From: a virus
Lineage: Duplodnaviria; Heunggongvirae; Uroviricota; Caudoviricetes
Strand: one strand, 5' to 3'
DNA: 18,978 bases
Virus record (IMG/VR): IMGVR_UViG_2657245081_000003
Made by a program: the position numbers and the translations under genes. Positions 1,513-18,978 of this stretch are shown here, piece after piece (positions within the stretch are counted from its first letter, which is position 1; each line of letters opens with the position of its first letter). The notes under the pieces are model-generated. The model was not told the origin of the DNA, made no database searches, and was given only the letters and a program-made list of their open reading frames with translations.

Positions 1513-2099
1513 AACCCCACCTCGCAGACAAAGCGGGTGTAAATTGAGGGAATACAACGTATCGCAAAAAAGCAGAAACGTAACAGACTCGGAGTCAGTG
1601 AATAACTCAGGTATTGGGTTATCAGCTAATATCGAGACTCAAAAAATGGAAAAATCCGCTCGACGGCGGGTTTAAGCTGTGTGACGAAGTAACCACTCTT
1701 AACAGCATAACCAATTTTTTACGTACGTAAACCACTAAATGATATTTGCGAGAATGCTACCGAGTATTGAAAACACCACTACAAATACATAAGCAAATCT
1801 CAACAAATAACCAACAAATAATTTCCAGCGTTATTTTTAGCTGGTTTAAATTGAATCTTCAAATTATAGAGCACTTATAAATAACAGCCATTAATATAAA
1901 TTGGCTAATAGATTTATTTTTATTCAGCCAAGAGCCATGAATAGGATTCGATAGAAAAAGTTCAGATAAAAATAGAGATCTACTTCACAAATCAAATGAG
2001 AAACCAAAACTTACATCTTGAAATAATCACATTGATTAGATGAATATTTATCGCGCAGTGACATCATTTTTTAATAATAGTTCAAAAAAAGGGCTCACG

Positions 2100-3182
2100 A
2101 TGAAAAAATTAACAGTGGCAATTTCTGCTGTAGCTGCATCAGTACTGATGGCGATGTCTGCTCAGGCAGCTGAAATTTATAATAAAGACAGTAACAAGCT
2201 GGATCTGTACGGGAAAGTTAATGCTAAGCACTACTTCTCCTCTAATGATGCAGATGATGGTGATACTACTTATGCCCGTCTTGGCTTCAAAGGTGAAACC
2301 CAAATCAACGATCAACTGACTGGTTTCGGTCAGTGGGAATATGAATTCAAAGGCAACCGCGCTGAATCTCAAGGTTCCTCCAAAGATAAAACCCGTCTTG
2401 CCTTCGCTGGCCTGAAATTCGGTGACTACGGCTCCATCGATTATGGCCGTAACTACGGTGTAGCATACGATATTGGTGCATGGACCGACGTTCTGCCAGA
2501 ATTCGGTGGCGATACCTGGACCCAAACAGATGTATTCATGACTGGTCGCACCACAGGTGTTGCAACTTATCGTAACAATGACTTCTTTGGTCTGGTTGAT
2601 GGTCTGAACTTTGCTGCTCAGTATCAGGGTAAAAATGACCGCACTGACGTAACTGAAGCTAATGGTGATGGTTTCGGTTTCTCCACTACTTATGAGTATG
2701 AAGGATTCGGTGTAGGTGCAACCTATGCTAAATCTGACCGCACTAATAATCAGGTTATCTACGGTAACAACAGCCTGAATGCATCTGGTCAAAATGCTGA
2801 AGTATGGGCAGCTGGTCTGAAATATGATGCGAACAACATCTATCTGGCTACCACCTATTCTGAAACCCAGAACATGACTGTTTTTGGTAATAACCATATT
2901 GCCAACAAAGCACAAAACTTCGAAGTAGTTGCACAATATCAGTTCGACTTCGGTCTGCGTCCGTCCGTTGCTTACCTGCAATCTAAAGGAAAAGACTTGG
3001 GTGCGTGGGGTGATCAGGACTTGGTTGAATATATTGATGTAGGTGCAACCTATTACTTCAACAAAAATATGTCCACTTTTGTTGATTACAAAATCAACCT
3101 GATTGATAAGAGCGATTTCACGAAAGCATCTGGCGTTGCTACCGATGATATCGTTGCTGTAGGTATGGTTTACCAGTTCTAA
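2100..3182 (+). CDS. nmpC: Outer-membrane general porin, phage-encoded Lc/NmpC type (OmpC/OmpF/PhoE family)
   Basis: Translation [47 protein letters not shown]... ...VGMVYQF has a signal peptide ending AQA, a porin-family body and a C-terminal aromatic residue (F) typical of beta-barrel OMPs. It sits between Q and S on the opposite strand, as nmpC does in DLP12. Start chosen at ATG 2100 (AGGG SD) rather than the track's 2040. Confidence 0.9.
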
Positions 3183-3370: not shown

Positions 3371-3754
3371 TTAATTAGAGTTATTAACAACGATATCCAT
3401 CTCTAACCGGATATCTAATGCCATTAACATCCCTTCAATTATGCCCTCAGCCTTCTGTAACCTTTTCCCGATATAACCATCAGAGCAGCAATGCTTACCT
3501 GCCAGTGACATGAATGTCATACCGACTACATAATAATCTACTAATAAATCGTGCAAATCGCTGTTGTTCTTTTTCAGACGGGCCATGCACCCGCAAATGA
3601 TCATCGCGTCATCGTCACAACATTGCGGGCGAGATTTTACTTTTGAAGTAATTAATCCCTTAAAACCGGCGGCAATGGACGACCAGGTCACATCTTCATG
3701 ATTATTAGCCGCCCACGCTCCCCAACGCTCAAGAACCATCTGAATATCACGCAT
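3371..3754 (-). CDS. Q: Late-gene antiterminator Q (phage 21/82 - DLP12 QuuD type)
   Basis: Translation [64 protein letters not shown]... matches DLP12 QuuD from memory, with cysteine-rich zinc-binding motifs. The ATG at 3754 is preferred over the upstream TTG at 3769. Confidence 0.85.
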
Positions 3755-3839
3755 CAACTTACTCCACAAAAATCAGACCAGAACGCCAATTACAAGCAAA
3801 AATCAACAAAACAGTATTAGTTGATTGTTATCTCTGACT

Positions 3840-3976: not shown

Positions 3977-4339
3977 TCATTCATTCCCCATTTCGGTGAT
4001 GGTCAGTTCCAGCCTCCCACCTTTGGTAACAGGCATCTTCACAACGCGGTAATCAACGACCTGAGCATCATCCAGCCAGAAACCTGCTTTAGTGAGTGCG
4101 TCAAAAGCGGCTTTTTGCAGATTATCCAGGTCACGGCGACGGCGATCCGGCATGTGGCACTCAATGCGGATTTTCACAGGCATAGCCAGGCCGATATCCA
4201 GCATTGCGTTTTTAATGATTCGGGCGACGTTATCGCGGTATGCCTGCCCCTCTGCGCTGACGTGCGTGCGCCCGCGATTATGGCGGTAATAGCGATTATT
4301 GCTCGGAGGCCAGGGTAATGTGATGCTGTAGGTATTCAC
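3977..4339 (-). CDS. rusA: Holliday-junction resolvase RusA
   Basis: Translation [120 protein letters not shown] matches DLP12 RusA from memory. GTG start. Confidence 0.9.
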
Positions 4340-4626
4340 GCCTTAATAACCCCCTCTTTCAGCCAGATAACCTGTGTTCTCGCCATACCTTCCAGCGCGC
4401 ATTCTTTTGCATATGCAGCATCGACAAAATGTGTGCGGCGGTCGATTTCGTCGTGGCAGGCAGAACATGCAATGGTGGCAATCAGGTCTGGCGGTTTGGT
4501 ACCGGTGCCGCACAATCCAGTCAGCCGGATATGTGCCAGTACAGACGTTTCAGGGTTGCCATTACATACGCCAGGGATTCTTACCTGGCATTCCCGACTA
4601 CGCGCTGCTTTTCTCAAATCAGCCAT
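4336..4626 (-). CDS. ybcO: YbcO-family protein (DUF1364, putative nuclease; cysteine-cluster)
   Basis: Translation [64 protein letters not shown]... matches DLP12 YbcO from memory. The ATG at 4626 overlaps the ninE stop. Confidence 0.8.
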
Positions 4627-4789
4627 GATTCCTCCTTGCTGCCAGTCGCAACCATTTTTTATCAACCAGGCTGGCGGTATATCCGAGCAGTGTTGGTATT
4701 TCGGAAGGCTTCAGCTCCGGTTTACGCTTACGACGATCTGGTACTCTGTAGATGTGTCCGTTCATGACACGAATAAGCGGTGTAGCCAT
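4619..4789 (-). CDS. ninE: NinE-family small protein (56 aa)
   Basis: Hand translation [56 protein letters not shown]. Its start overlaps the ybcN stop (TAATG) and its stop overlaps the ybcO start. Not in the ORF track because it is under 60 aa. Confidence 0.75.
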   Translation of the reverse strand: MATPLIRVMNGHIYRVPDRRKRKPELKPSEIPTLLGYTASLVDKKWLRLAARRNHG

Positions 4790-5244
4790 TACGCCTCCTG
4801 CTTGTCGCGGAGCAGCTGGAACTCGCAGCTCTGCGGAATAGTCAGGTGGCAGCCAATATTCACCGCCCAGGCTTCAACCTTACACAGGAAGACATACATC
4901 TCTCCGGTATCAAGATCGGAGGTATGGCGTAACGACTGGATAGTGGTGATATCACCGGTTACGACATCAACCAGGTCTTTGGTTTCATAACCGAGATATG
5001 TGTGTTTGAGAGCATCTTTTACCCAAGCTGGAGTGGCGAACGTTTTACCCTTGCTGATGAGGTATTCACTGATTTCGCTGTACCACATGTGGCTGAGTGC
5101 ATTCTGGGAAAGACTGCGTCTCTCGCGCCACGGTTTAAGCACCATGCGAAAGCATTTGCCGTCCTCCAGATAAGGCTGGATCTGCCGACCGATAGCGGTG
5201 AAGTTACCGCGATGCAATTTGATACCATCTTGTGGGAGGTTCAC
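4789..5244 (-). CDS. ybcN: NinB/YbcN-family protein (recombination-associated, DNA-binding)
   Basis: Translation [62 protein letters not shown]... matches DLP12 YbcN from memory; the RSLSQN..LW motif is shared with lambda NinB. Confidence 0.8.
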
Positions 5245-5409
5245 GCTTCACCTCCGCAGAGGTCAAACGTTGGATGCAAGATATCGCAGGTGCATTTCTG
5301 CATCTGTGACTGGTTGAAAGGTGTTCTGATTGTCGTTTGCACTTTGAGTCCCCTCAAAGCGCAGAAGTCACCGGAGTTGTTCAGGCTCCGATGACATGAT
5401 TATGGCGAG

Positions 5410-5427
5410 TTGATTATGATGAATCAA
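5410..5427. promoter_or_regulatory. Perfect 18-bp palindrome TTGATT-atgatg-AATCAA about 95 bp upstream of the 472-aa gene; candidate operator/promoter element (TTGATT could double as a -35)
   Basis: Read directly; the 6-bp arms are exact reverse complements. No binding protein is known. Confidence 0.3.
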
Positions 5428-5519
5428 TAGGTTCTTATGTCAAATGAACACTAGATCCAAAGGAGGGTAACAATTATCATAGCCAATGAGATTAATCTCA
5501 TTTTTAATAAGGAAATTTC

Positions 5520-6938
5520 ATGAAATATTTCTCAACTGGTTTTTATGTTTCAAACTCCACATCTCTAGCTGAGATCTTTAATGAATGTTTTTCTTGGGTA
5601 AACGACTCACCACATACAACTTTTATTCCAGCACAATTAGTATGTGATTATAAAAGCGAGGAGTACTTCATAGAGTCTAAAAATGAAAGAATTGATATAA
5701 TAACTTATAAAAACAAAGATACTAGTTTAGGCTGTTTTAGGTATTCGAAAATATCTGAGCCACACAAATGGGTAACAGATATTTCAATTAATAAAAATCT
5801 CAAAACTGATACCATGTGGATTCAGGTGGAATCTAGCGTTGTAAGCCAAGATGCAGCTTATCTAGCCCCGCAACCTAAGAAACCATTAGTTGTTATGAGA
5901 TTGATTGATAAATTTTCTGGTGGTCTTGATGATATTTTCAAGGTGTCAGTCGAACCTCATTCCTTAGATGATACTGATGAACATTTAAATATAGCAGCTA
6001 AAGTTATAAATGGTGAAACTGACAACAGACTACCAATAATATACGTTAGCTCCAAGTATTTTTTTAATGAACATGCTCACAATATCATCCCAGAACGCCT
6101 TGCAAGAAAGGTATGCGGATTAGCACATGTATTAATTGAGCCTAGCAATAGACTATTTTCTATTAAGCTAAAAAATGAGACAAATGCTAAAAATGCCTAT
6201 GCTGGTGCTGTTGGTATCTATTGGCCACGGGGTCAAAATATCAGTTTTTATCGCCGTGGTGAGAAAACCGCAAAAGAATTTGAAGATGAGTTATTTGATG
6301 ATGTTGTAAGAGCTACGACTACAATGGCTCCTGTCTCAGATAGTGGATGGAGTGAGATACAAACCAGAAAAACGAAAGACTCTATTAACTCACTCAAAGA
6401 AAGAGGAGAATACACACGCGAACTGATGGCGCTTTACGAAGCCGATAATGTTGCGAAAGATGACCAAATAGAAGATCTTAAGCATAAGATCTCCTCTTTA
6501 GAGCACAGAGTACGCACTCTTCAATCACAAGCTTCAGCCCAAGGAAGCATTGTGCTTAATGCTGGTGAAGAGACTGATTTTTTTGATGGAGAAATCAAAA
6601 ATATAATTATTGACGCACTAAAAACTGCCATAAAAAATAAAAATGAATTTGGTAGAAGCTACCATATCTTATCATCCCTAATTGCCAATAATGAATACAA
6701 TAAAGAAACCGAGAGTCGCCGCCAATTACTTAAAAGGACTTTAACAGGTTACAGAAGCATGGATAGCGCAACACAAAGAAATTTAAAGGACTTAGGTTTC
6801 AGTGCGTCAAGCGATGGAAAACACTGGAAGTTAACATATAATGAAGACCCTCGATATTCCTATATTTTACCTAAAACAGGAAGTGACCACAGAGGTTCTT
6901 TAAATGCTATCTCGGATATAGCAAACATTATTTTCTAA
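5520..6938 (+). CDS. Hypothetical protein, 472 aa, no recognisable family; AT-rich accessory gene (moron), candidate phage-defence or exclusion function
   Basis: Long uninterrupted ORF with SD AAGGA 7 nt upstream of the ATG and strongly AT-biased codons unlike the neighbours. It is on the strand opposite to the surrounding operon and is followed by a perfect hairpin. A predicted coiled-coil segment is present (ELMALYEADNVAKDDQIEDLKHKISSLEHRVRTLQSQ). No Walker A or other motif recognised by eye. Confidence 0.75.
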   Translation: MKYFSTGFYVSNSTSLAEIFNECFSWVNDSPHTTFIPAQLVCDYKSEEYFIESKNERIDIITYKNKDTSLGCFRYSKISEPHKWVTDISINKNLKTDTMWIQVESSVVSQDAAYLAPQPKKPLVVMRLIDKFSGGLDDIFKVSVEPHSLDDTDEHLNIAAKVINGETDNRLPIIYVSSKYFFNEHAHNIIPERLARKVCGLAHVLIEPSNRLFSIKLKNETNAKNAYAGAVGIYWPRGQNISFYRRGEKTAKEFEDELFDDVVRATTTMAPVSDSGWSEIQTRKTKDSINSLKERGEYTRELMALYEADNVAKDDQIEDLKHKISSLEHRVRTLQSQASAQGSIVLNAGEETDFFDGEIKNIIIDALKTAIKNKNEFGRSYHILSSLIANNEYNKETESRRQLLKRTLTGYRSMDSATQRNLKDLGFSASSDGKHWKLTYNEDPRYSYILPKTGSDHRGSLNAISDIANIIF

Positions 6939-6946
6939 TAAATTTC

Positions 6947-6972
6947 AATAGCACTCACAAATGAGTGCTATT
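6947..6972. terminator. Perfect hairpin (11-bp stem AATAGCACTCA / TGAGTGCTATT, 4-nt loop) between convergent ORFs; likely bidirectional terminator
   Basis: Read directly; lies 9 nt after the stop of the 472-aa gene and 18 nt after the stop of the opposing small ORF. Confidence 0.6.
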
Positions 6973-6989
6973 GTTGCCACTGAATTACT

Positions 6990-7244
6990 CTATTTAAATT
7001 CAACTTTTATCCCTTTGTTTAGCAGGGCATCAGAAACTGCCTTTTTTGTAACATTTATCCCTGCAAGCAATGCTTTATGCATTGGTCCCTTAAAAATTTC
7101 TACTTCTTCTTCAGTGAGTTTAGGCAATGTAATATAAATAACATCTTTCATCTGCTTGTTTTTATAGCATGAGCTTCTTGTGTGCTTACAATCGATATTT
7201 TCTTTATTTCCCAAAACATCATCCCCTTTATAATTCAGTTCCAC
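6990..7244 (-). CDS. Hypothetical small lysine-rich protein (84 aa from GTG; 53 aa if started at the internal ATG at 7151)
   Basis: AT-rich ORF convergent with the 472-aa gene. No convincing SD at either start; C-terminal half MKDVIYITLPKLTEEEVEIFKGPMHKALLAGINVTKKAVSDALLNKGIKVEFK looks protein-like. May not be a real gene. Confidence 0.3.
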   Translation of the reverse strand: MELNYKGDDVLGNKENIDCKHTRSSCYKNKQMKDVIYITLPKLTEEEVEIFKGPMHKALLAGINVTKKAVSDALLNKGIKVEFK

Positions 7245-7308
7245 ACATCAATTATTTAGTTATCACGAATGTCGTAAAACTAAAATTAGTAACAATAATT
7301 GCTCATAC

Positions 7309-7596
7309 CTACTCTCTTCCATATAAAGCCAACACCCGCTTCATCGCGGCACTTTGACGACACTCCTTAAAAATCAGATTCGTGCTCACCTTTCCTTCCC
7401 GTTCTTCTCTGGTAGCGAACCGGTAATACACCGTTCGCCAGACCTTACCATCAACGACCAGGATTCCTGACCGCGCCATTTTAGCCGCAGCCTGATTTAT
7501 GCTGGTTACGGTTGCGCCTGTTACCGCGGCAACGTCCTGCGCACAGAAGTTCTTATGAGTCCCCAGGTAATGAATAATTGCCTCTTTGCCCGTCAT
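7309..7596 (-). CDS. ren: Ren protein (lambda ren-like; Rex exclusion resistance)
   Basis: Translation MTGKEAIIHYLGTHKNFCAQDVAAVTGATVTSINQAAAKMARSGILVVDGKVWRTVYYRFATREEREGK... matches lambda Ren from memory. Overlaps the P stop as in lambda. Confidence 0.85.
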   Translation of the reverse strand: MTGKEAIIHYLGTHKNFCAQDVAAVTGATVTSINQAAAKMARSGILVVDGKVWRTVYYRFATREEREGKVSTNLIFKECRQSAAMKRVLALYGRE

Positions 7597-8294
7597 ACAC
7601 TTGCTCCTTTCAGCCCAAACTTCGCTTTGATTTCTGCGATCTTCGCCAGAGCCTGAACACGATTAAGCGGTCTCCCGCCCATGACAGGAAGTTGTTTTAC
7701 TGGTTCAGGTATCGCCTCACCACGGTTAATTCGCGCTGTCATACAGGCCAGTTCATCGGCAGCCTTGCGCCGTAATTCCGCATCAGTCAGCGCATTGGCC
7801 CGCATGTTCTGATACAGGTTGGTAACCAGCCAGTAGTGCGCGTTTGATTTCCACGGATAAGACTCTGCATCTGGATACAGGCCACGTTTCCGGCAATACT
7901 CGTAAACCATATCAACCAGCTCGCTGGCGTTTGGCAGCCCGGCGGTAACGGATGCTTCTTCCCGGCACCAGGCAACAAACTGCCCGGGTGATGGCAGGAA
8001 TGGTCGATTCTGCCGACGGGCTACGCGCATTCCTGCGTTAACCTGTTCCATCGTGGTGATCCCGTTTTCCCGGAAAGCCAGAACCCACTGGCGGCGGATT
8101 TCGTTCAGTTCGTTCTGGTCCCGGTTAGCCAGGCTCGCCGGGAAAGTTGCCAGTAACTGGCTGAACACACCATTGATGATCTGCGCTACCTGTTGTACCT
8201 GCGGCTTTTCGTCGTACTGTTCCGGCATGTTGTTGGCGATCCGGCGCATCTGCTCACGGTCAAAGTTAACCATCTGTGCGGCGATGTTTTTCAT
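7593..8294 (-). CDS. P: Replication protein P (DnaB helicase loader)
   Basis: Translation MKNIAAQMVNFDREQMRRIANNMPEQYDEKPQVQQVAQIINGVFSQLLATFPASLANRDQNELNEIRRQWVLAFRENGITTMEQVNAGMRVARRQNRPF... ...AKFGLKGASV is near-identical to lambda P from memory (233 aa). Confidence 0.95.
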   Translation of the reverse strand: MKNIAAQMVNFDREQMRRIANNMPEQYDEKPQVQQVAQIINGVFSQLLATFPASLANRDQNELNEIRRQWVLAFRENGITTMEQVNAGMRVARRQNRPFLPSPGQFVAWCREEASVTAGLPNASELVDMVYEYCRKRGLYPDAESYPWKSNAHYWLVTNLYQNMRANALTDAELRRKAADELACMTARINRGEAIPEPVKQLPVMGGRPLNRVQALAKIAEIKAKFGLKGASV

Positions 8295-9220
8295 AAATCC
8301 ACCCCGTAAATCCAGTCAGTGTTTGTCAGGTCGAGTTTTGATTTTCCGGCTATCACGCCAGCCTGTTGCTTGTTACGGTTGATTTCGAGTTGGGTCCACT
8401 TGTCGCGGAGTTTGGCCGGACTTAGCACGTTACCGGACCAGAAGTTGTCCTGGCATGCCCAGCGGAACAGCACGCACATGTCGCGGTGGTTACGGCCGTC
8501 ACGTTCACGCATCAGGCGGATATCGTTAGCCCACCCTGCAAAATTCGGTTTTCTGGCTGATGGCGCGATGGTCTTCACCATGTCAAACATCCACTCTGCG
8601 GCGGTCAGGTCTTCTGCTGTCCCCCACCTGCTGCCGCTCTGAATTGCAGCATCTGGTTTCTCCACAGGAAGATCGTTTTCTGGTTGGTCAGAGGATTCGC
8701 CAGAATTCTCGGACGAAAAAGGTTTTATATTGTCTTTTGTTAGTTTGTATTTTGTGTTTACCTGATTCGGGTAAGTGCCTTTACCTGATTTGGGTAAACT
8801 TTTCTTACCTGATTCAGGTAAATTTACCTCTTTCAGGTAAACTTTATTTTTCTTACCTGATTCGGGTAATGTTGACCATTCACTGACCACATTATTAATG
8901 CCGATATTCCGCCCGCTCTGAATAAAAATCCCACGCTTTACCAGAACACTTTTTGCAGCAGAACACTTGTGCGGCAATATCCCGGTCAACTCGGAAAGTT
9001 GCTCGTTGCTCACCCAATCCAGTTTTTTATTAAAGCCATATGTTTTGCGCATGACAGCCAGGAAGACCAGAAGCTGGTGCTGTGTTAATCCGGCCAGCAT
9101 CACAGCTTCCAGCAACTCATTTGCAATGCGCGTATAACCATCATCGAGATCTGCCACGCGCGGCTCCTTTTGTGCCGCATCCGGCACTGGAAAATTGAAT
9201 ATCTCAGCAGTGTTTGCCAT
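8291..9220 (-). CDS. O: Replication initiator O (origin-binding protein); the gene contains the origin iterons
   Basis: Start chosen at MANTAEIFNFPVPD... (ATG 9220, SD GGGAGG upstream) rather than the longer track ORF. The C-terminal half ...AAEWMFDMVKTIAPSARKPNFAGWANDIRLMRERDGRNHRDMCVLFRWACQDNFWSGNVLSPAKLRDKWTQLEINRNKQQ... is lambda-O-like from memory. The repeated LPESGKK peptide is encoded by the iterons. Confidence 0.9.
   Translation of the reverse strand: MANTAEIFNFPVPDAAQKEPRVADLDDGYTRIANELLEAVMLAGLTQHQLLVFLAVMRKTYGFNKKLDWVSNEQLSELTGILPHKCSAAKSVLVKRGIFIQSGRNIGINNVVSEWSTLPESGKKNKVYLKEVNLPESGKKSLPKSGKGTYPNQVNTKYKLTKDNIKPFSSENSGESSDQPENDLPVEKPDAAIQSGSRWGTAEDLTAAEWMFDMVKTIAPSARKPNFAGWANDIRLMRERDGRNHRDMCVLFRWACQDNFWSGNVLSPAKLRDKWTQLEINRNKQQAGVIAGKSKLDLTNTDWIYGVDL
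8748..8859. repeat. Origin of replication iterons: five ~17-bp dyad-symmetric repeats (consensus TTACCTGATTCGGGTAA) inside the O gene, flanked by an AT-rich tract (8700-8747)
   Basis: Copies start at 8748, 8771, 8795, 8814 and 8843 (TTACCTGATTCGGGTAA, TTACCTGATTTGGGTAA, TTACCTGATTCAGGTAA, TTACCTCTTTCAGGTAA, TTACCTGATTCGGGTAA). Relative to O transcription the AT-rich region is downstream of the iterons, as in ori-lambda. Confidence 0.8.
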
Positions 9221-9306
9221 AATTCCTCCCGCAATGAGTGTGTTACGATTTGCACCTGAAAGTCGGTTCTGTTCCCGCAGACCGACTTTCGCCATTTCTG
9301 AACCTG

Positions 9307-9846
9307 TCATATTGCCCCCAGCATGGTGGTCACCATCGCCATTAATGGACCAGCCAGATCCGGGTCCACACGAAACATCGACACAATACCTTCACTCATT
9401 TCCTTCAGTTTCTGGTGGCGTGGTGCGTTGAGAATGACAGCCTGTTTTGCCTCACTGAGTTCCTTTTCCATTTCAGCCAACCGAGTCATGAAGCTATCCT
9501 GCTCAACCAGGTAACCGCGATATTCCAGCGGTAGTACCGCCAGAATTGCCGGGGTCAGTTCACGCACGTTATTTCGGTATTTTTCAGAATCGAATTTGTT
9601 ATCGAGGAAGCGGAACAGCTTCTGGCGTGCACGGCTGACATCATCAGGGAAATCGATGGTGCCGTCGCCCTGCTCCCGATACTCATTCACAATGAGTGCG
9701 GCAACGACATCCTGATTATCTACAGCCGACCAGGCGCGGACGGCATCACGGATTTTTTCGTGGCCTGGAGCTTGTTTTGTTTGAGAACGATTTATCACCG
9801 CAGTCGGAATAAATCCGCTAGTCTGTTGGTATGTAAGTGGTTGCAT
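9307..9846 (-). CDS. Regulator at the cII position (179 aa); possibly a YdaT-like functional analogue of CII
   Basis: Strong SD AAGGAG 7 nt upstream of the ATG. Located between cro and O where lambda has cII, but about twice cII's size and not lambda-CII-like in sequence. The YdaT assignment is inferred from the YdaS-like cro upstream and is not verified. Confidence 0.55.
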   Translation of the reverse strand: MQPLTYQQTSGFIPTAVINRSQTKQAPGHEKIRDAVRAWSAVDNQDVVAALIVNEYREQGDGTIDFPDDVSRARQKLFRFLDNKFDSEKYRNNVRELTPAILAVLPLEYRGYLVEQDSFMTRLAEMEKELSEAKQAVILNAPRHQKLKEMSEGIVSMFRVDPDLAGPLMAMVTTMLGAI

Positions 9847-10250: not shown

Positions 10251-10940
10251 ATGAAAACAACACTCTCAGAAAGACTTAAAGAAGCCAGATTAGCGCGAGG
10301 CCTTACACAAAAGGCGCTTGGGGATTTGGTCGGGGTTAGCCAGGCTGCTATTCAGAAAATCGAAACAGGGAAAGCTAACCAAACAACTAAAATCGTGGAG
10401 ATCGCGAACGCTTTGGGTGTGCGCGCAGAATGGTTATCTTCTGGCGTTGGAAATATGTCAGACAGTACAGTGCAACCAATACAATCAACTGTCAGCCATT
10501 CCAAATACTTCAAAATTGACGTTCTTGATATAGAAGTCAGTGCCGGGCCAGGTGTAATCAACCGTGAGTTTGTAGAAGTTCTACGCTCGGTTGAGTACTC
10601 GTTTGACGATGCTCGTCACATGTTCGATGGCAGGAAGGCGGAAAATATCCGCATCATTAACGTGCGAGGTGACAGCATGTCAGGGACGATCGAACCAGGT
10701 GACCTGCTGTTCGTTGATATCACTGTTAAATCTTTCGACGGTGATGGCATCTATGCGTTTCTGTACGACGACACTGCCCATGTAAAACGTCTTCAAATGA
10801 TGAAGGATAAGCTGCTGGTTATCTCTGATAACAAGAGCTACTCGCCGTGGGACCCGATCGAGAAAGACGAGATGAACCGGGTGTTCATATTCGGTAAGGT
10901 CATTGGAAGCATGCCGCAGACGTACAGGAAGCATGGTTAA
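10251..10940 (+). CDS. cI: CI prophage repressor (N-terminal HTH, C-terminal LexA-like S24 autopeptidase domain)
   Basis: Translation MKTTLSERLKEARLARGLTQKALGDLVGVSQAAIQKIETGKANQ... has an HTH, then a linker, then the S24 motifs RGDSMSGTIEPGDLLFVD and HVKRL (Ser/Lys dyad). Confidence 0.9.
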   Translation: MKTTLSERLKEARLARGLTQKALGDLVGVSQAAIQKIETGKANQTTKIVEIANALGVRAEWLSSGVGNMSDSTVQPIQSTVSHSKYFKIDVLDIEVSAGPGVINREFVEVLRSVEYSFDDARHMFDGRKAENIRIINVRGDSMSGTIEPGDLLFVDITVKSFDGDGIYAFLYDDTAHVKRLQMMKDKLLVISDNKSYSPWDPIEKDEMNRVFIFGKVIGSMPQTYRKHG

Positions 10941-11169: not shown

Positions 11170-11550
11170 ATGAGAAAAATCCTAATCGCTGCCATGATGG
11201 CATCTGTATTGGCTGGGTGTGCTTCTTCAGGCAACCAGCAACTCAAAAATGAAACTGAAATTAGTGTCCAGTCTAAACTTCAGGAAGGTAAAACAACCAA
11301 GAATGAGGTTAAATCTTACTTTGGTTCTCCTGATGCTGTTTCATATACTGACAGTGGAAACGAGATCTGGAAGTACGCCTTTGCAAAAGTAAAAGTTAAT
11401 GGCACCACTTTTATTCCATTCTATGGATTATTCCATAATGGAACGAACGGTACGAAAAAAGAACTTACTATTCTTTTTAACGATGACACGATTAAGAAAT
11501 ACACAATGTCAGAAACCCAAATAAACTCGAAATCAGGTTGGGCTGACTGA
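11170..11550 (+). CDS. Lipoprotein (126 aa), AT-rich moron at the rexAB position downstream of cI; possible BamE/SmpA-OmlA-like fold; candidate superinfection-exclusion factor
   Basis: Translation MRKILIAAMMASVLAGCASSGNQQ... has a signal peptide with lipobox LAGC; the mature part is hydrophilic. Followed directly by a rho-independent terminator. Confidence 0.75.
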   Translation: MRKILIAAMMASVLAGCASSGNQQLKNETEISVQSKLQEGKTTKNEVKSYFGSPDAVSYTDSGNEIWKYAFAKVKVNGTTFIPFYGLFHNGTNGTKKELTILFNDDTIKKYTMSETQINSKSGWAD

Positions 11551-15243: not shown

Positions 15244-15846
15244 TCATTCAGTATCATCACGCGCGGTCTGTGCATATGTCACTACCGCACCTAATATATT
15301 AATTTTCTTTTCAACATAGATAATATTATCGTACTCATAATTGCCATACGGATAGCAAATGCGAATATTCTCATGTAGATCGGGGTCATCCACCTCAGCT
15401 CCAGAACAACTTTTTGAACTACCGGAAGTATACCGATACGGTGCAACGTAAGACGATGTCTCTCCAGGCAAAAAATAAGTTAGTGTCGTAAGGGGTATAA
15501 TCAGAAAAAATCCAGCAAATATGCACATCCCTGCATAAACCTTAAGGTATGCTGACAGACTCTTCCAGCCGCTTTGTTTTACTATCCCCTTCTTAACCCA
15601 AAACAGAGATAACAGAAAAGCTATTCCCATGCTAAACAGAATGTAATAGTGGGATATACTCTGATTAAGAAACGTGACCCTGTAGATATCTGCCCGCCAC
15701 CAGAAGAAAAGGAAAATAAAGATCAGCCCTGAAACTGTCATGCAAATCAAATAAGGATACGAATCTTTTTTCATGTTTAGCGCCCATAAAATTTTTCCTG
15801 ACCCGGACAAATTTACCATCCATTTTTTGCGCAGAAAATAGCTCAT
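15244..15846 (-). CDS. Hypothetical membrane protein (about 3 TM helices plus a C-terminal soluble domain), AT-rich, opposite strand to the early-left operon; candidate exclusion/accessory gene
   Basis: Hydrophobic segments PYLICMTVSGLIFIFLFFWW, YYILFSMGIAFLLSLFWV and YAGMCIFAGFFLIIPLTTLTYFL. The exact start is uncertain (three in-frame ATGs, none with a strong SD). It occupies the place where lambda has ea22/ea8.5. Confidence 0.6.
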   Translation of the reverse strand: MSYFLRKKWMVNLSGSGKILWALNMKKDSYPYLICMTVSGLIFIFLFFWWRADIYRVTFLNQSISHYYILFSMGIAFLLSLFWVKKGIVKQSGWKSLSAYLKVYAGMCIFAGFFLIIPLTTLTYFLPGETSSYVAPYRYTSGSSKSCSGAEVDDPDLHENIRICYPYGNYEYDNIIYVEKKINILGAVVTYAQTARDDTE

Positions 15847-16293: not shown

Positions 16294-16512
16294 ATGTACT
16301 TGACACTTCAGGAGTGGAACGCTCGCCAGCGACGCCCAAGAAGCCTTGAAACAGTTCGTCGATGGGTGCGCGAATGCAGGATATTCCCTCCTCCGGTTAA
16401 GGATGGAAGAGAATATCTGTTCCACGAATCAGCGGTAAAGGTTGACTTAAATCGACCAGTAACAGGTAGCCTTTTGAAGAGGATCAGAAATGGGAAGAAG
16501 GCGAAGTCATGA
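16294..16512 (+). CDS. xis: Excisionase Xis (lambda-type)
   Basis: Translation MYLTLQEWNARQRRPRSLETVRRWVRECRIFPPPVKDGREYLFHESAVKVDLNRPVTGSLLKRIRNGKKAKS is near-identical to lambda Xis from memory; overlaps the int start by 23 nt as in lambda. Confidence 0.95.
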   Translation: MYLTLQEWNARQRRPRSLETVRRWVRECRIFPPPVKDGREYLFHESAVKVDLNRPVTGSLLKRIRNGKKAKS

Positions 16513-17560
16513 GCGCCGGGATTTACCCCCTAACCTTTATATAAGAAACAATGGATATTACTGCTACAGGGACCCAAGGACGGGTAAAGAGTTTGGATTA
16601 GGCCGAGACAGGCGAATCGCAATCACTGAAGCTATACAGGCCAACATTGAGTTATTTTCAGGACACAAACACAAGCCTCTGACAGCGAGAATCAACAGTG
16701 ATAATTCCGTTACGTTACATTCATGGCTTGATCGCTACGAAAAAATCCTGGCCAGCAGAGGAATCAAGCAGAAGACACTCATAAATTACATGAGCAAAAT
16801 TAAAGCAATAAGGAGGGGTCTGCCTGATGCTCCACTTGAAGACATCACCACAAAAGAAATTGCGGCAATGCTCAATGGATACATAGACGAGGGCAAGGCG
16901 GCGTCAGCCAAGTTAATCAGATCAACACTGAGCGATGCATTCCGAGAGGCAATAGCTGAAGGCCATATAACAACAAACCCTGTCGCTGCCACTCGCGCAG
17001 CAAAATCAGAGGTAAGGAGATCAAGACTTACGGCTGACGAATACCTGAAAATTTATCAAGCAGCAGAATCATCACCATGTTGGCTCAGACTTGCAATGGA
17101 ACTGGCTGTTGTTACCGGGCAACGAGTTGGTGATTTATGCGAAATGAAGTGGTCTGATATCGTAGATGGATATCTTTATGTCGAGCAAAGCAAAACAGGC
17201 GTAAAAATTGCCATCCCAACAACATTGCATGTTGATGCTCTCGGGATATCAATGAAGGAAACACTTGATAAATGCAAAGAGATTCTTGGCGGAGAAACCA
17301 TAATTGCATCTACTCGTCGCGAACCGCTTTCATCCGGCACAGTATCAAGGTATTTTATGCGCGCACGAAAAGCATCAGGTCTTTCCTTCGAAGGGGATCC
17401 GCCTACCTTTCACGAGTTGCGCAGTTTGTCTGCAAGACTCTATGAGAAGCAGATAAGCGATAAGTTTGCTCAACATCTTCTCGGGCATAAGTCGGACACC
17501 ATGGCATCACAGTATCGTGATGACAGAGGCAGGGAGTGGGACAAAATTGAAATCAAATAA
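16490..17560 (+). CDS. int: Integrase Int (lambda-type tyrosine recombinase), intact
   Basis: The 356-aa translation MGRRRSHERRDLPPNLYIRNNGYYCYRDPRTGKEFGLGRDRRIAITEAIQANIELFSGHKHKPL... ...HLLGHKSDTMASQYRDDRGREWDKIEIK is essentially lambda Int. Confidence 0.97.
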   Translation: MGRRRSHERRDLPPNLYIRNNGYYCYRDPRTGKEFGLGRDRRIAITEAIQANIELFSGHKHKPLTARINSDNSVTLHSWLDRYEKILASRGIKQKTLINYMSKIKAIRRGLPDAPLEDITTKEIAAMLNGYIDEGKAASAKLIRSTLSDAFREAIAEGHITTNPVAATRAAKSEVRRSRLTADEYLKIYQAAESSPCWLRLAMELAVVTGQRVGDLCEMKWSDIVDGYLYVEQSKTGVKIAIPTTLHVDALGISMKETLDKCKEILGGETIIASTRREPLSSGTVSRYFMRARKASGLSFEGDPPTFHELRSLSARLYEKQISDKFAQHLLGHKSDTMASQYRDDRGREWDKIEIK

Positions 17561-17694: not shown

Positions 17695-18978
17695 GTGAAC
17701 ACATTTTCAGTTTCCCGTCTGGCGCTGGCATTGGCTTTTGGCGTGACGCTGACCGCCTGTAGCTCAACCCCGCCCGATCAACGTCCTTCTGATCAAACCG
17801 CGCCTGGTACCTCTTCTCGCCCGATTCTGTCGGCAAAAGAAGCGCAGAATTTCGATGCTCAACACTATTTTGCATCCCTGACACCAGGTGCTGCAGCGTG
17901 GAATCCTTCCCCGATTACCCTGCCTGCGCAACCTGACTTTGTTGTCGGCCCGGCGGGCACTCAAGGTGTAACGCATACCACGATTCAGGCGGCGGTAGAT
18001 GCGGCAATTATCAAGCGTACCAACAAGCGCCAGTATATTGCCGTGATGCCTGGTGAGTATCAGGGAACGGTATATGTCCCTGCCGCTCCGGGTGGAATTA
18101 CTCTGTACGGTACAGGTGAAAAACCGATTGATGTGAAGATTGGGCTTTCCCTTGATGGTGGCATGAGCCCTGCCGACTGGCGTCACGACGTCAACCCGCG
18201 CGGCAAATATATGCCAGGTAAACCAGCGTGGTATATGTACGATAGCTGCCAGAGCAAACGCAGCGACAGTATCGGTGTTCTCTGCTCTGCGGTCTTCTGG
18301 TCACAAAACAATGGCCTGCAACTGCAAAATCTGACCATCGAAAACACGCTGGGCGATAGCGTAGATGCAGGTAACCATCCGGCGGTGGCACTGCGTACTG
18401 ATGGTGACCAGGTACAGATTAACAACGTTAACATTCTCGGTCGTCAGAACACCTTCTTTGTCACCAACAGCGGTGTGCAGAACCGTCTGGAAACGAATCG
18501 TCAGCCGCGTACGCTGGTGACCAACAGCTACATTGAAGGGGATGTGGATATCGTTTCTGGTCGCGGCGCAGTGGTGTTCGATAACACCGAATTCCGCGTG
18601 GTGAACTCACGTACTCAGCAAGAAGCGTATGTGTTTGCACCGGCTACGCTGTCCAACATTTACTACGGTTTCCTCGCCGTAAACAGCCGTTTCAATGCTT
18701 TCGGTGATGGTGTGGCGCAACTGGGCCGCTCGCTGGATGTTGATGCCAATACCAACGGTCAGGTGGTGATCCGTGATAGCGCCATCAACGAAGGTTTTAA
18801 CACGGCTAAACCGTGGGCCGATGCGGTGATCTCTAATCGTCCGTTTGCGGGTAATACCGGCAGCGTAGATGATAACGACGAAATACAGCGCAATCTGAAT
18901 GACACTAACTACAACCGCATGTGGGAATACAATAACCGCGGCGTGGGTAGTAAAGTGGTTGCAGAGGCGAAGAAGTAA
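17695..18978 (+). CDS. ybhC: Host lipoprotein YbhC (pectinesterase-family acyl-CoA thioesterase), flanking lambda attB
   Basis: GTG start; translation MNTFSVSRLALALAFGVTLTACSSTPPDQ... has a lipobox LTAC; 427 aa; GC-rich host-like codon usage; recognised from memory as E. coli YbhC, the gene next to attB-lambda. Confidence 0.93.
   Translation: MNTFSVSRLALALAFGVTLTACSSTPPDQRPSDQTAPGTSSRPILSAKEAQNFDAQHYFASLTPGAAAWNPSPITLPAQPDFVVGPAGTQGVTHTTIQAAVDAAIIKRTNKRQYIAVMPGEYQGTVYVPAAPGGITLYGTGEKPIDVKIGLSLDGGMSPADWRHDVNPRGKYMPGKPAWYMYDSCQSKRSDSIGVLCSAVFWSQNNGLQLQNLTIENTLGDSVDAGNHPAVALRTDGDQVQINNVNILGRQNTFFVTNSGVQNRLETNRQPRTLVTNSYIEGDVDIVSGRGAVVFDNTEFRVVNSRTQQEAYVFAPATLSNIYYGFLAVNSRFNAFGDGVAQLGRSLDVDANTNGQVVIRDSAINEGFNTAKPWADAVISNRPFAGNTGSVDDNDEIQRNLNDTNYNRMWEYNNRGVGSKVVAEAKK

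Follow-up and report, generated by a model that had tools for sequence, protein, structure and literature searches.

What is the role of a solitary, AT-rich gene that reads against its neighbors in the early region of a lambda-type E. coli prophage? We addressed this question in an 18,978-nucleotide stretch of viral DNA, referred to here as the window (IMG/VR record IMGVR_UViG_2657245081_000003; Caudoviricetes). According to the list of open reading frames (ORFs) and their translations, an ATG-initiated ORF at 5520-6938 on the + strand encodes a protein of 472 amino acids (aa). A first-pass annotation, made from the DNA sequence only, had singled this gene out as the best candidate in the window for an undescribed defense function. 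Sequence identity marks the 472-aa gene as the prophage version of DS-10, an anti-phage defense system that consists of one gene.

The window protein is identical at 395 of 399 compared residues (99.0%; the comparison covered the first 399 of the 472 residues) to WP_087897267.1, with the substitutions T62N, V124I, S133P and I215T between the window protein and DS-10. WP_087897267.1, itself 472 aa long, has the working ID ZAPB and is the DS-10 of the DefensePredictor study (DeWeirdt, Mahoney & Laub, Science 2026; PMC13092281). There DS-10 is a one-gene unit from E. coli GCF_003334705.1 labeled "predicted novel defense gene". Units were cloned with their native promoter on a low-copy plasmid (pCV1) in MG1655 and challenged with 24 phages. 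The Table S7 rows for DS-10 record a drop on Bas1 from 3x10^6 to 30 plaque-forming units, a -log(efficiency of plating) of 5, and smaller plaques with little change in titer on Bas3 and lambda (PMC13092281). DS-10 is marked there as replicated, and the main text counts "HicA mRNA interferase" among the newly validated defense domains. The guess that this was a defense gene is therefore well founded, given that a 99%-identical protein reduces Bas1 plating 10^5-fold from its native promoter in MG1655. The word "undescribed" has to be withdrawn, because the gene has since been validated and named as DS-10, and the finding is therefore already known. That the window gene is a functional defense gene of the DS-10 type we regard as very probable. 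Our search of the literature found no later or mechanistic paper on DS-10.

How might such a protein work? An AlphaFold2 (AF2) model built on 42 homologues, with a mean pLDDT (per-residue confidence score) of 83, is arranged as follows.

Residues 1-110 (5520-5849, + strand): N-terminal beta-sheet and helix domain, weakly SRPBCC/Bet v 1-like in the AF2 model.
Residues 120-250 (5877-6269, + strand): thioredoxin-like alpha/beta domain without CxxC, with invariant G200, A202, H203, E207, G229 and P236.
Residues 277-337 (6348-6530, + strand): coiled-coil helices, from AF2 secondary structure, with noise matches of the Tropomyosin/Taxilin type.
Residues 358-408 (6591-6743, + strand): helical bundle in the AF2 model.
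Residues 416-471 (6765-6932, + strand): C-terminal HicA-like domain, alpha-beta-beta-beta-alpha, containing G433-K434-H435, with the His435 codon at 6822-6824.

Long helices occupy residues 251-337 of the model, and those at 277-337 correspond to the central coiled coil that had been seen on first reading. A low-confidence or disordered linker, carrying invariant E351 and E358, joins the coiled coil to the helical bundle. The same reading had found no motif that could be assigned; the thioredoxin-like fold, the HicA-like C-terminal domain and a match to the PADLOC profile for HEC-07 now stand in its place. Searches with the whole protein against Pfam, NCBIfam and PDB sequences returned coiled-coil noise only, and Foldseek with the whole model against PDB returned nothing at E<=0.001.

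The assignment of the C-terminus is supported from several sides. Published HHpred results identify residues 416-471 of DS-10 as HicA (6HPB_C, probability 0.91; PMC13092281). All 42 sequences compared, the most distant at 23% identity, have H435. Among homologous C-termini the commonest match, a weak but specific one, is Pfam HicA_toxin (6 of 24, best E 0.0048), and the PADLOC "HicA-like" model matches two of the 42 homologues. Alignment by hhalign to E. coli HicA gave an E of 5e-5 and placed H435 on the histidine of GSNH, the HicA sequence used being an approximate one.

The N-terminal part of the protein leads to a second known defense protein. HEC-07 of P. aeruginosa (WP_039244286.1, 549 aa) is a single-gene validated anti-phage defense and was among seven candidates that lowered plating in E. 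coli; its parts are an AdoMetDC-like domain, a thioredoxin-like domain that lacks CxxC, and a C-terminus resembling RelE (Payne et al., bioRxiv 10.1101/2024.01.29.577857). The PADLOC HEC-07 profile matches residues 83-334 of the window protein (E 1e-9, 35.8 bits, covering profile positions 107-366 of 553) and 39 of the 42 homologues. When the full-length HEC-07 protein that had been tested (P0228, 549 aa) was compared, together with its family, with the window family, hhalign aligned residues 8-367 of the window protein with 30-423 of HEC-07 (97.7%, E 2.4e-12, 339 columns). The alignment runs over the scaffold and ends before the C-terminal domains; therefore, the two families share a scaffold and differ in the terminal mRNA-interferase-type domain. 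Of the HEC-07 features, the N-terminal domain and the CxxC-less thioredoxin-like domain are present in the window protein, the latter with an "AHV" that HEC-07 also keeps, whereas the C-terminal RelE-family RNase domain with its conserved histidine (H543) is not, and strict HEC-07 membership was rejected for lack of that domain. The HEC-07 family profile did not recover RelE when searched against PDB sequences, and the RelE label for this protein is therefore that of Payne et al.

On these alignments DS-10 looks like the HEC-07 scaffold with a HicA-type domain swapped in. The supplementary files of DeWeirdt et al. contained no mention of HEC-07 that we could find, the main text not having been searched for that name; the main text does cite Payne et al. 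for validation of a PIN domain (PMC13092281). In the portions of DeWeirdt et al. and Payne et al. on which we draw, the scaffold homology is a point made in neither. Both families also have an acidic-aromatic stretch just after the coiled coil, E-E-T-D-F-F-D-G-E in DS-10 (aa 351-358, 6570-6593, including E351 and E358 and of low confidence in the model) and L-D-x-F-E-x-W-C in HEC-07 (aa ~405-416), which is a candidate regulatory or docking segment.

A broader reading, which we put forward tentatively and think somewhat less probable than its negation, places DS-10 and HEC-07 as two branches within a single large superfamily of single-chain immune proteins. The conserved module of ~360 residues (SRPBCC-like pocket, redox-dead thioredoxin-like domain with an invariant His/Glu site, coiled coil) would serve as a shared phage sensor, whose ligand might be a small molecule or a phage protein, and the C-terminal mRNA-interferase domain would be freely exchangeable, HicA-type here and RelE-type in HEC-07. 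If this is true, toxin domains that ordinarily depend on a separate antitoxin would have in this scaffold a new sensing device of general use.

For DS-10 itself we propose that the first ~360 residues, comprising the SRPBCC-like domain, the CxxC-less thioredoxin-like domain and a dimerizing coiled coil, would act as sensor and autoinhibitory scaffold, keeping the HicA-type mRNA interferase domain at the C-terminus switched off. When a phage such as Bas1 infects, a cue from it would lift this inhibition, and the HicA-like domain would then cleave RNA with His435 as the catalytic residue. Translation would stop, and infection would be aborted or stalled before progeny were made. Because the gene lies antisense within the delayed-early operon of the prophage, antiterminated transcription from pR would run against it; more speculatively, such antisense transcription on induction could damp DS-10 expression when the resident phage goes lytic. 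An effector role for the C-terminus agrees with the apparent exchange between RelE-type and HicA-type domains on a common scaffold. Taken as a whole, a prophage copy of DS-10 with an autoinhibited HicA-type effector is the explanation toward which we lean, and the RNase and abortive-infection mechanism within it we put at close to, but not above, an even chance.

Several points weigh against this proposal. The thioredoxin-like domain has invariant His203 and Glu207, which may belong to an active site other than the one proposed. The window protein has no Pfam HicA hit above threshold (the PF07927 gathering score), and the E. coli HicA sequence in the hhalign comparison was an approximate one. 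In the DefensePredictor publication, DS-10 mutants are absent from the strain table and DS-10 is not among the systems dissected with mutants; strong protection is recorded against only one of the 24 phages, Bas1, which is itself affected by many other systems in the same screen (PMC13092281). We found no RNase activity, toxicity, trigger or abortive phenotype reported for DS-10 in the literature. Finally, promoter support for the gene in this lysogen consists of one consensus match.

Some of the same observations can be read differently. The HicA fold resembles a double-stranded RNA-binding domain (dsRBD) (Gerdes, mBio 2024; bioRxiv 10.1101/2023.12.08.570793), and the HicA-like domain could be an RNA-binding sensor or anchor of that type and not a nuclease. 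The effector would then lie elsewhere, for example in the thioredoxin-like pocket (invariant His203/Glu207 plus the GxxGIYWP loop), or protection would come from sequestration of phage RNA or protein. This would suit the sub-threshold Pfam HicA hits and the fact that the strongest invariant cluster outside the C-terminus is in the thioredoxin-like domain, where "AHV" is kept in HEC-07 too. However, the catalytic Gly-x-His of HicA toxins is kept, with a histidine that does not vary across the 42 sequences, and HEC-07 has a RelE mRNA interferase at the same position, a pattern expected of an interchangeable effector and not of a sensor. We consider this alternative unlikely, though it is the chief rival to an autoinhibited HicA-type effector.

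How did the gene come to lie in this prophage? It is flanked by a ybcN/NinB-like gene and ren, within the lambdoid early-right block of the - strand, as follows.

3371-3769, - strand: Q antiterminator (Pfam Phage_antitermQ).
3977-4339, - strand: rusA.
4336-4665, - strand: ybcO.
4619-4789, - strand: ninE.
4789-5244, - strand: ybcN (NinB-like).
~5444-7329, no strand: AT-rich variable segment (cassette) between the ybcN/orf33 backbone and ren.
6990-7244, - strand: 84-aa orphan ORF, AT-rich, convergent with the DS-10 gene and co-directional with the phage early operon.
7309-7596, - strand: ren.
7593-8294, - strand: P.
8291-9310, - strand: O.

Beyond O lie a YdaT-like gene, cro and then a cI-like S24 repressor at 10251-10940. 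The DS-10 gene is the sole + strand gene between its - strand neighbors and forms a single-gene transcription unit with its own upstream region, as the first reading had placed it, between ren and the NinB/NinE/YbcO/RusA block. That reading had also called it more AT-rich than the flanking phage genes, and GC content is indeed 0.30-0.41 over ~5400-7400 compared with 0.51-0.56 in both flanks. By blastn against five related prophages and phage 82, backbone homology ends at 5415-5443 and resumes at 7330; therefore, the variable segment measures ~1.9 kb.

The cassette is present in 24 of 5426 complete E. coli genomes, in copies 98.4-100% identical with the ORF open, whereas the flanking ybcN segment is found in ~3000 genomes. 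Neither the protein (tblastn) nor the cassette has a match in 50,697 phage records. Exact copies of the 472-aa protein are recorded in 888 blocks of public assemblies. The eight places read all have the gene order ybcN-(orf33)-[472]-[84]-ren, and the remainder of the carrier prophages is mosaic, with two unrelated Q types, differing cargo on the lysis side and O/P deleted in some copies. At the same ren/ybcN junction other prophages carry emrE and ybcK; IS3, P22AR-C and ybcK; an alpha/beta hydrolase beside an inverse autotransporter; or a NADAR and phosphoribosyltransferase-like pair. The gene deviates in composition, brings expression signals of its own, and is either present or lacking at one fixed junction in related phages; by these features it is a self-contained moron, sitting at the variable junction of ren and ybcN in a lambda-type prophage. 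This agrees with the horizontal acquisition suggested at first, and the comparison of neighborhoods across lambdoid prophages likewise finds a variable cargo and not a gene ubiquitous at a fixed position.

The NADAR-family and phosphoribosyltransferase-like genes at this position lie in an operon in the prophage of E. coli E94 (locus L017, 4606-6238), where an MT-A70 methyltransferase pseudogene takes the place of ren; the pair may be another defense or counter-defense pair.

Elsewhere the family is large and of uniform length, with 1038 clusters at 50% identity found at E<=1e-30. Homologues of 30-77% identity occur as a solitary gene between a P4-type integrase and the chromosome in E. coli and Salmonella islands, as a solitary gene in a Pseudomonas chromosomal island with Fic, HipA and BrnA, on the opposite strand inside a Dickeya integrative and conjugative element (ICE), adjoining IS110, and as the main cargo of 5.9-kb ColE1-type Klebsiella plasmids. 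No conserved neighbor gene was found at the homologue loci. In one such mobilizable plasmid (NZ_CP028803.2, locus L013), of a type that recurs in several clinical K. pneumoniae isolates, a 49%-identical homologue at 641-2062 is the largest gene and lies directly downstream of a RelE/ParE toxin gene.

Such carriers raise the thought that DS-10 is mainly a fused toxin-antitoxin addiction module that stabilizes mobile elements, with defense a side effect seen on a plasmid. Homologues do occur next to a RelE/ParE pair on very small ColE1 plasmids, inside an ICE and within islands bounded by integrases, and fused HicA-antitoxin proteins are known bioinformatically (Gerdes, bioRxiv 10.1101/2023.12.08.570793). 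Nevertheless, a single polypeptide offers no differential-stability mechanism for post-segregational killing, the gene is also found in the Pseudomonas chromosomal Fic/HipA/BrnA island, and the reduction of Bas1 plating by a factor of 10^5, seen with the native promoter, is a direct defense phenotype. We find an addiction module improbable.

The 84-aa ORF was cut off by the first-pass coordinates (5245-6989). Twenty-four complete E. coli genomes contain its DNA, as many as contain the full cassette, and it adjoins the 472-aa gene in eight of eight contexts read. Its close relatives among 5.8 billion proteins form only four clusters; it matches nothing in Pfam, PADLOC, PHROG or NCBIfam and is absent both from phage records and from beside homologues of the 472-aa gene elsewhere. 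As an orphan with this distribution it was rejected as an antitoxin or partner of DS-10, and we treat it as local baggage of the cassette in this prophage and not as a conserved partner. One RefSeq genome (MB20) labels it "phospholipase D-like domain-containing", a label unsupported by any family search here.

Does the gene carry its own expression signals? The sequence around it contains the following elements.

5391-5420, + strand: candidate sigma-70-like promoter ATGACA-18-TATGAT, the best match upstream of the gene in a consensus scan (10/12), in backbone sequence.
5399-5427, - strand: promoter-like element TTGATT-17-CATAAT, in backbone, reading towards orf33/ybcN and containing what had first been called a palindrome.
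5485-5502, no strand: perfect 18-bp palindrome AATGAGATTAATCTCATT (AATGAGATT/AATCTCATT) from an inverted-repeat scan, 17 nt before the ATG and just upstream of the Shine-Dalgarno sequence.
5509-5513, + strand: Shine-Dalgarno sequence AAGGA, 6 nt before the ATG.
6946-6973, no strand: perfect hairpin with a 12-bp stem and 4-nt loop, lying in the gap that separates the convergent ORFs and beginning 8 nt past the stop codon.

The Shine-Dalgarno sequence is where the first-pass annotation had put it. The 18-bp palindrome that it reported at 5410-5427 (TTGATTATGATGAATCAA) consists of 6-bp arms and a 6-nt spacer and is absent from the inverted-repeat scan, the perfect 18-bp palindrome being instead that at 5485-5502. 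The 5410-5427 segment lies within conserved lambdoid backbone matching phage 82, HK639 and thousands of E. coli prophages, and therefore outside the cassette; it overlaps a putative - strand promoter annotated in phage 82. The -10 of the 5399-5427 element (5399-5404) coincides with the putative -10 annotated in the phage 82 record X92588, and its -35 matches the annotated -35 by an ungapped offset extrapolated a few bases past the aligned region. The palindrome at 5485-5502 could be an operator or a hairpin in the 5' untranslated region; it is not common to the loci of the 77%-identical homologue, because their DNA homology begins only at 5509. As for the terminator proposed after the stop codon, the perfect hairpin is there (dG -17 kcal/mol, z = -5; none of 200 shuffles folds as well), but it has no T-run on the + strand, and the terminator scan scores it for the - strand only.

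That the gene is silent or irrelevant in this lysogen, carried because it is embedded between conserved recombining modules, would fit with carrier prophages that are degraded (O/P deleted in loci L018 and L023) and with a promoter seen as a consensus match only, but we think it most improbable given the exact sequence intact in 888 assembly blocks across mosaics with two Q types, cassette copies that are near-identical with the ORF open, and DS-10 activity from its own upstream region (PMC13092281).

Other parts of the window bear on the prophage as a whole. In its nin/Q region the prophage resembles DLP12 and phage 82. Between Q and the lysis genes, on the opposite strand, stands a full-length gene for a Gram-negative porin (2040-3182, + strand; Porin_1, E 4e-153), which is an nmpC/ompC-type moron, as in DLP12; this position is a second cargo site, held in related prophages by a lipocalin and YbgA pair or by a DUF3800 gene. 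A lambda-type integrase at 16490-17560 (+ strand; Arm-DNA-bind_1 and Phage_integrase) is followed by a pectinesterase-family gene at 17695-18978 (+ strand) that resembles host ybhC, a neighbor from which we presume that the prophage lies at or near the classical lambda attachment site and not at the DLP12 site. Two further ORFs occupy positions that often hold accessory genes in lambdoid phages: one of 200 aa without a Pfam match between the recombination genes and int (15244-15846, - strand), and one of 126 aa with a weak BamE-like match directly to the right of the repressor (11170-11550, + strand).

As a defense gene, then, this is a re-discovery, and it confirms that reading raw sequence for AT-rich, opposite-strand morons of the nin region can pick out real immune genes. 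What is added here is the corrected anatomy, recognition of the ren/ybcN junction as a site for cargo, and the HEC-07 homology, in which the toxin domain is exchanged. The HEC-07 link, with RelE-type and HicA-type domains on the same scaffold, points to a modular design of sensor plus mRNA interferase. A family of more than 1000 clusters at 50% identity makes the question of the DS-10 mechanism more tractable, and the fixed place of this allele at a variable lambdoid junction offers a natural setting in which to ask how an induced prophage escapes attack by its own proposed RNase.

Among known systems, DS-10 is the same as the window protein in length (472 aa), in being a single-gene unit and in its HicA-like domain at residues 416-471; the publication gives only a plating phenotype and a domain label, and neither a mechanism nor mutants (PMC13092281). 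HEC-07 shares a homologous N-terminal domain, the CxxC-less thioredoxin-like domain, the coiled coil and the segment just after it, at ~17% identity. However, HEC-07 ends in a RelE-family domain with His543, whereas the window protein ends in a helical bundle and a HicA-like domain, and the C-termini do not align. HicA toxins (PF07927; PDB 5YRZ, 6G26, 6HPB) have the same alpha-beta-beta-beta-alpha, dsRBD-like fold as the DS-10 C-terminus, which keeps the Gly-x-His motif, its invariant histidine aligned by hhalign to that of GSNH. In contrast to the HicA toxins of type II HicAB systems, DS-10 has no adjacent HicB gene, its neighbors being ybcN/orf33 and the orphan 84-aa ORF; its HicA-like domain forms the last 57 residues of a 472-aa protein, falls below Pfam thresholds, and has additional invariant D443, R445 and Y446 that are untypical of HicA.

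The fused HicA proteins of Gerdes (classes 11-14) and CapRel(SJ46)-type proteins are, like DS-10, monocistronic, with a toxin domain joined to a larger regulatory part. Class 13 proteins, of 340-440 aa, are for the most part helical at the N-terminus and those of class 14 are SMC fusions, whereas the N-terminus of DS-10 is beta-rich SRPBCC-like plus thioredoxin-like; by these class descriptions, membership of DS-10 in a fused-HicA class was rejected. The logic that we propose for DS-10, autoinhibition relieved by a phage cue, would nevertheless be common to it and to these fused proteins, and the abortive or stalling mechanism would be comparable with that of other toxin-based defenses, such as the CapRel-type fused systems discussed by Gerdes.

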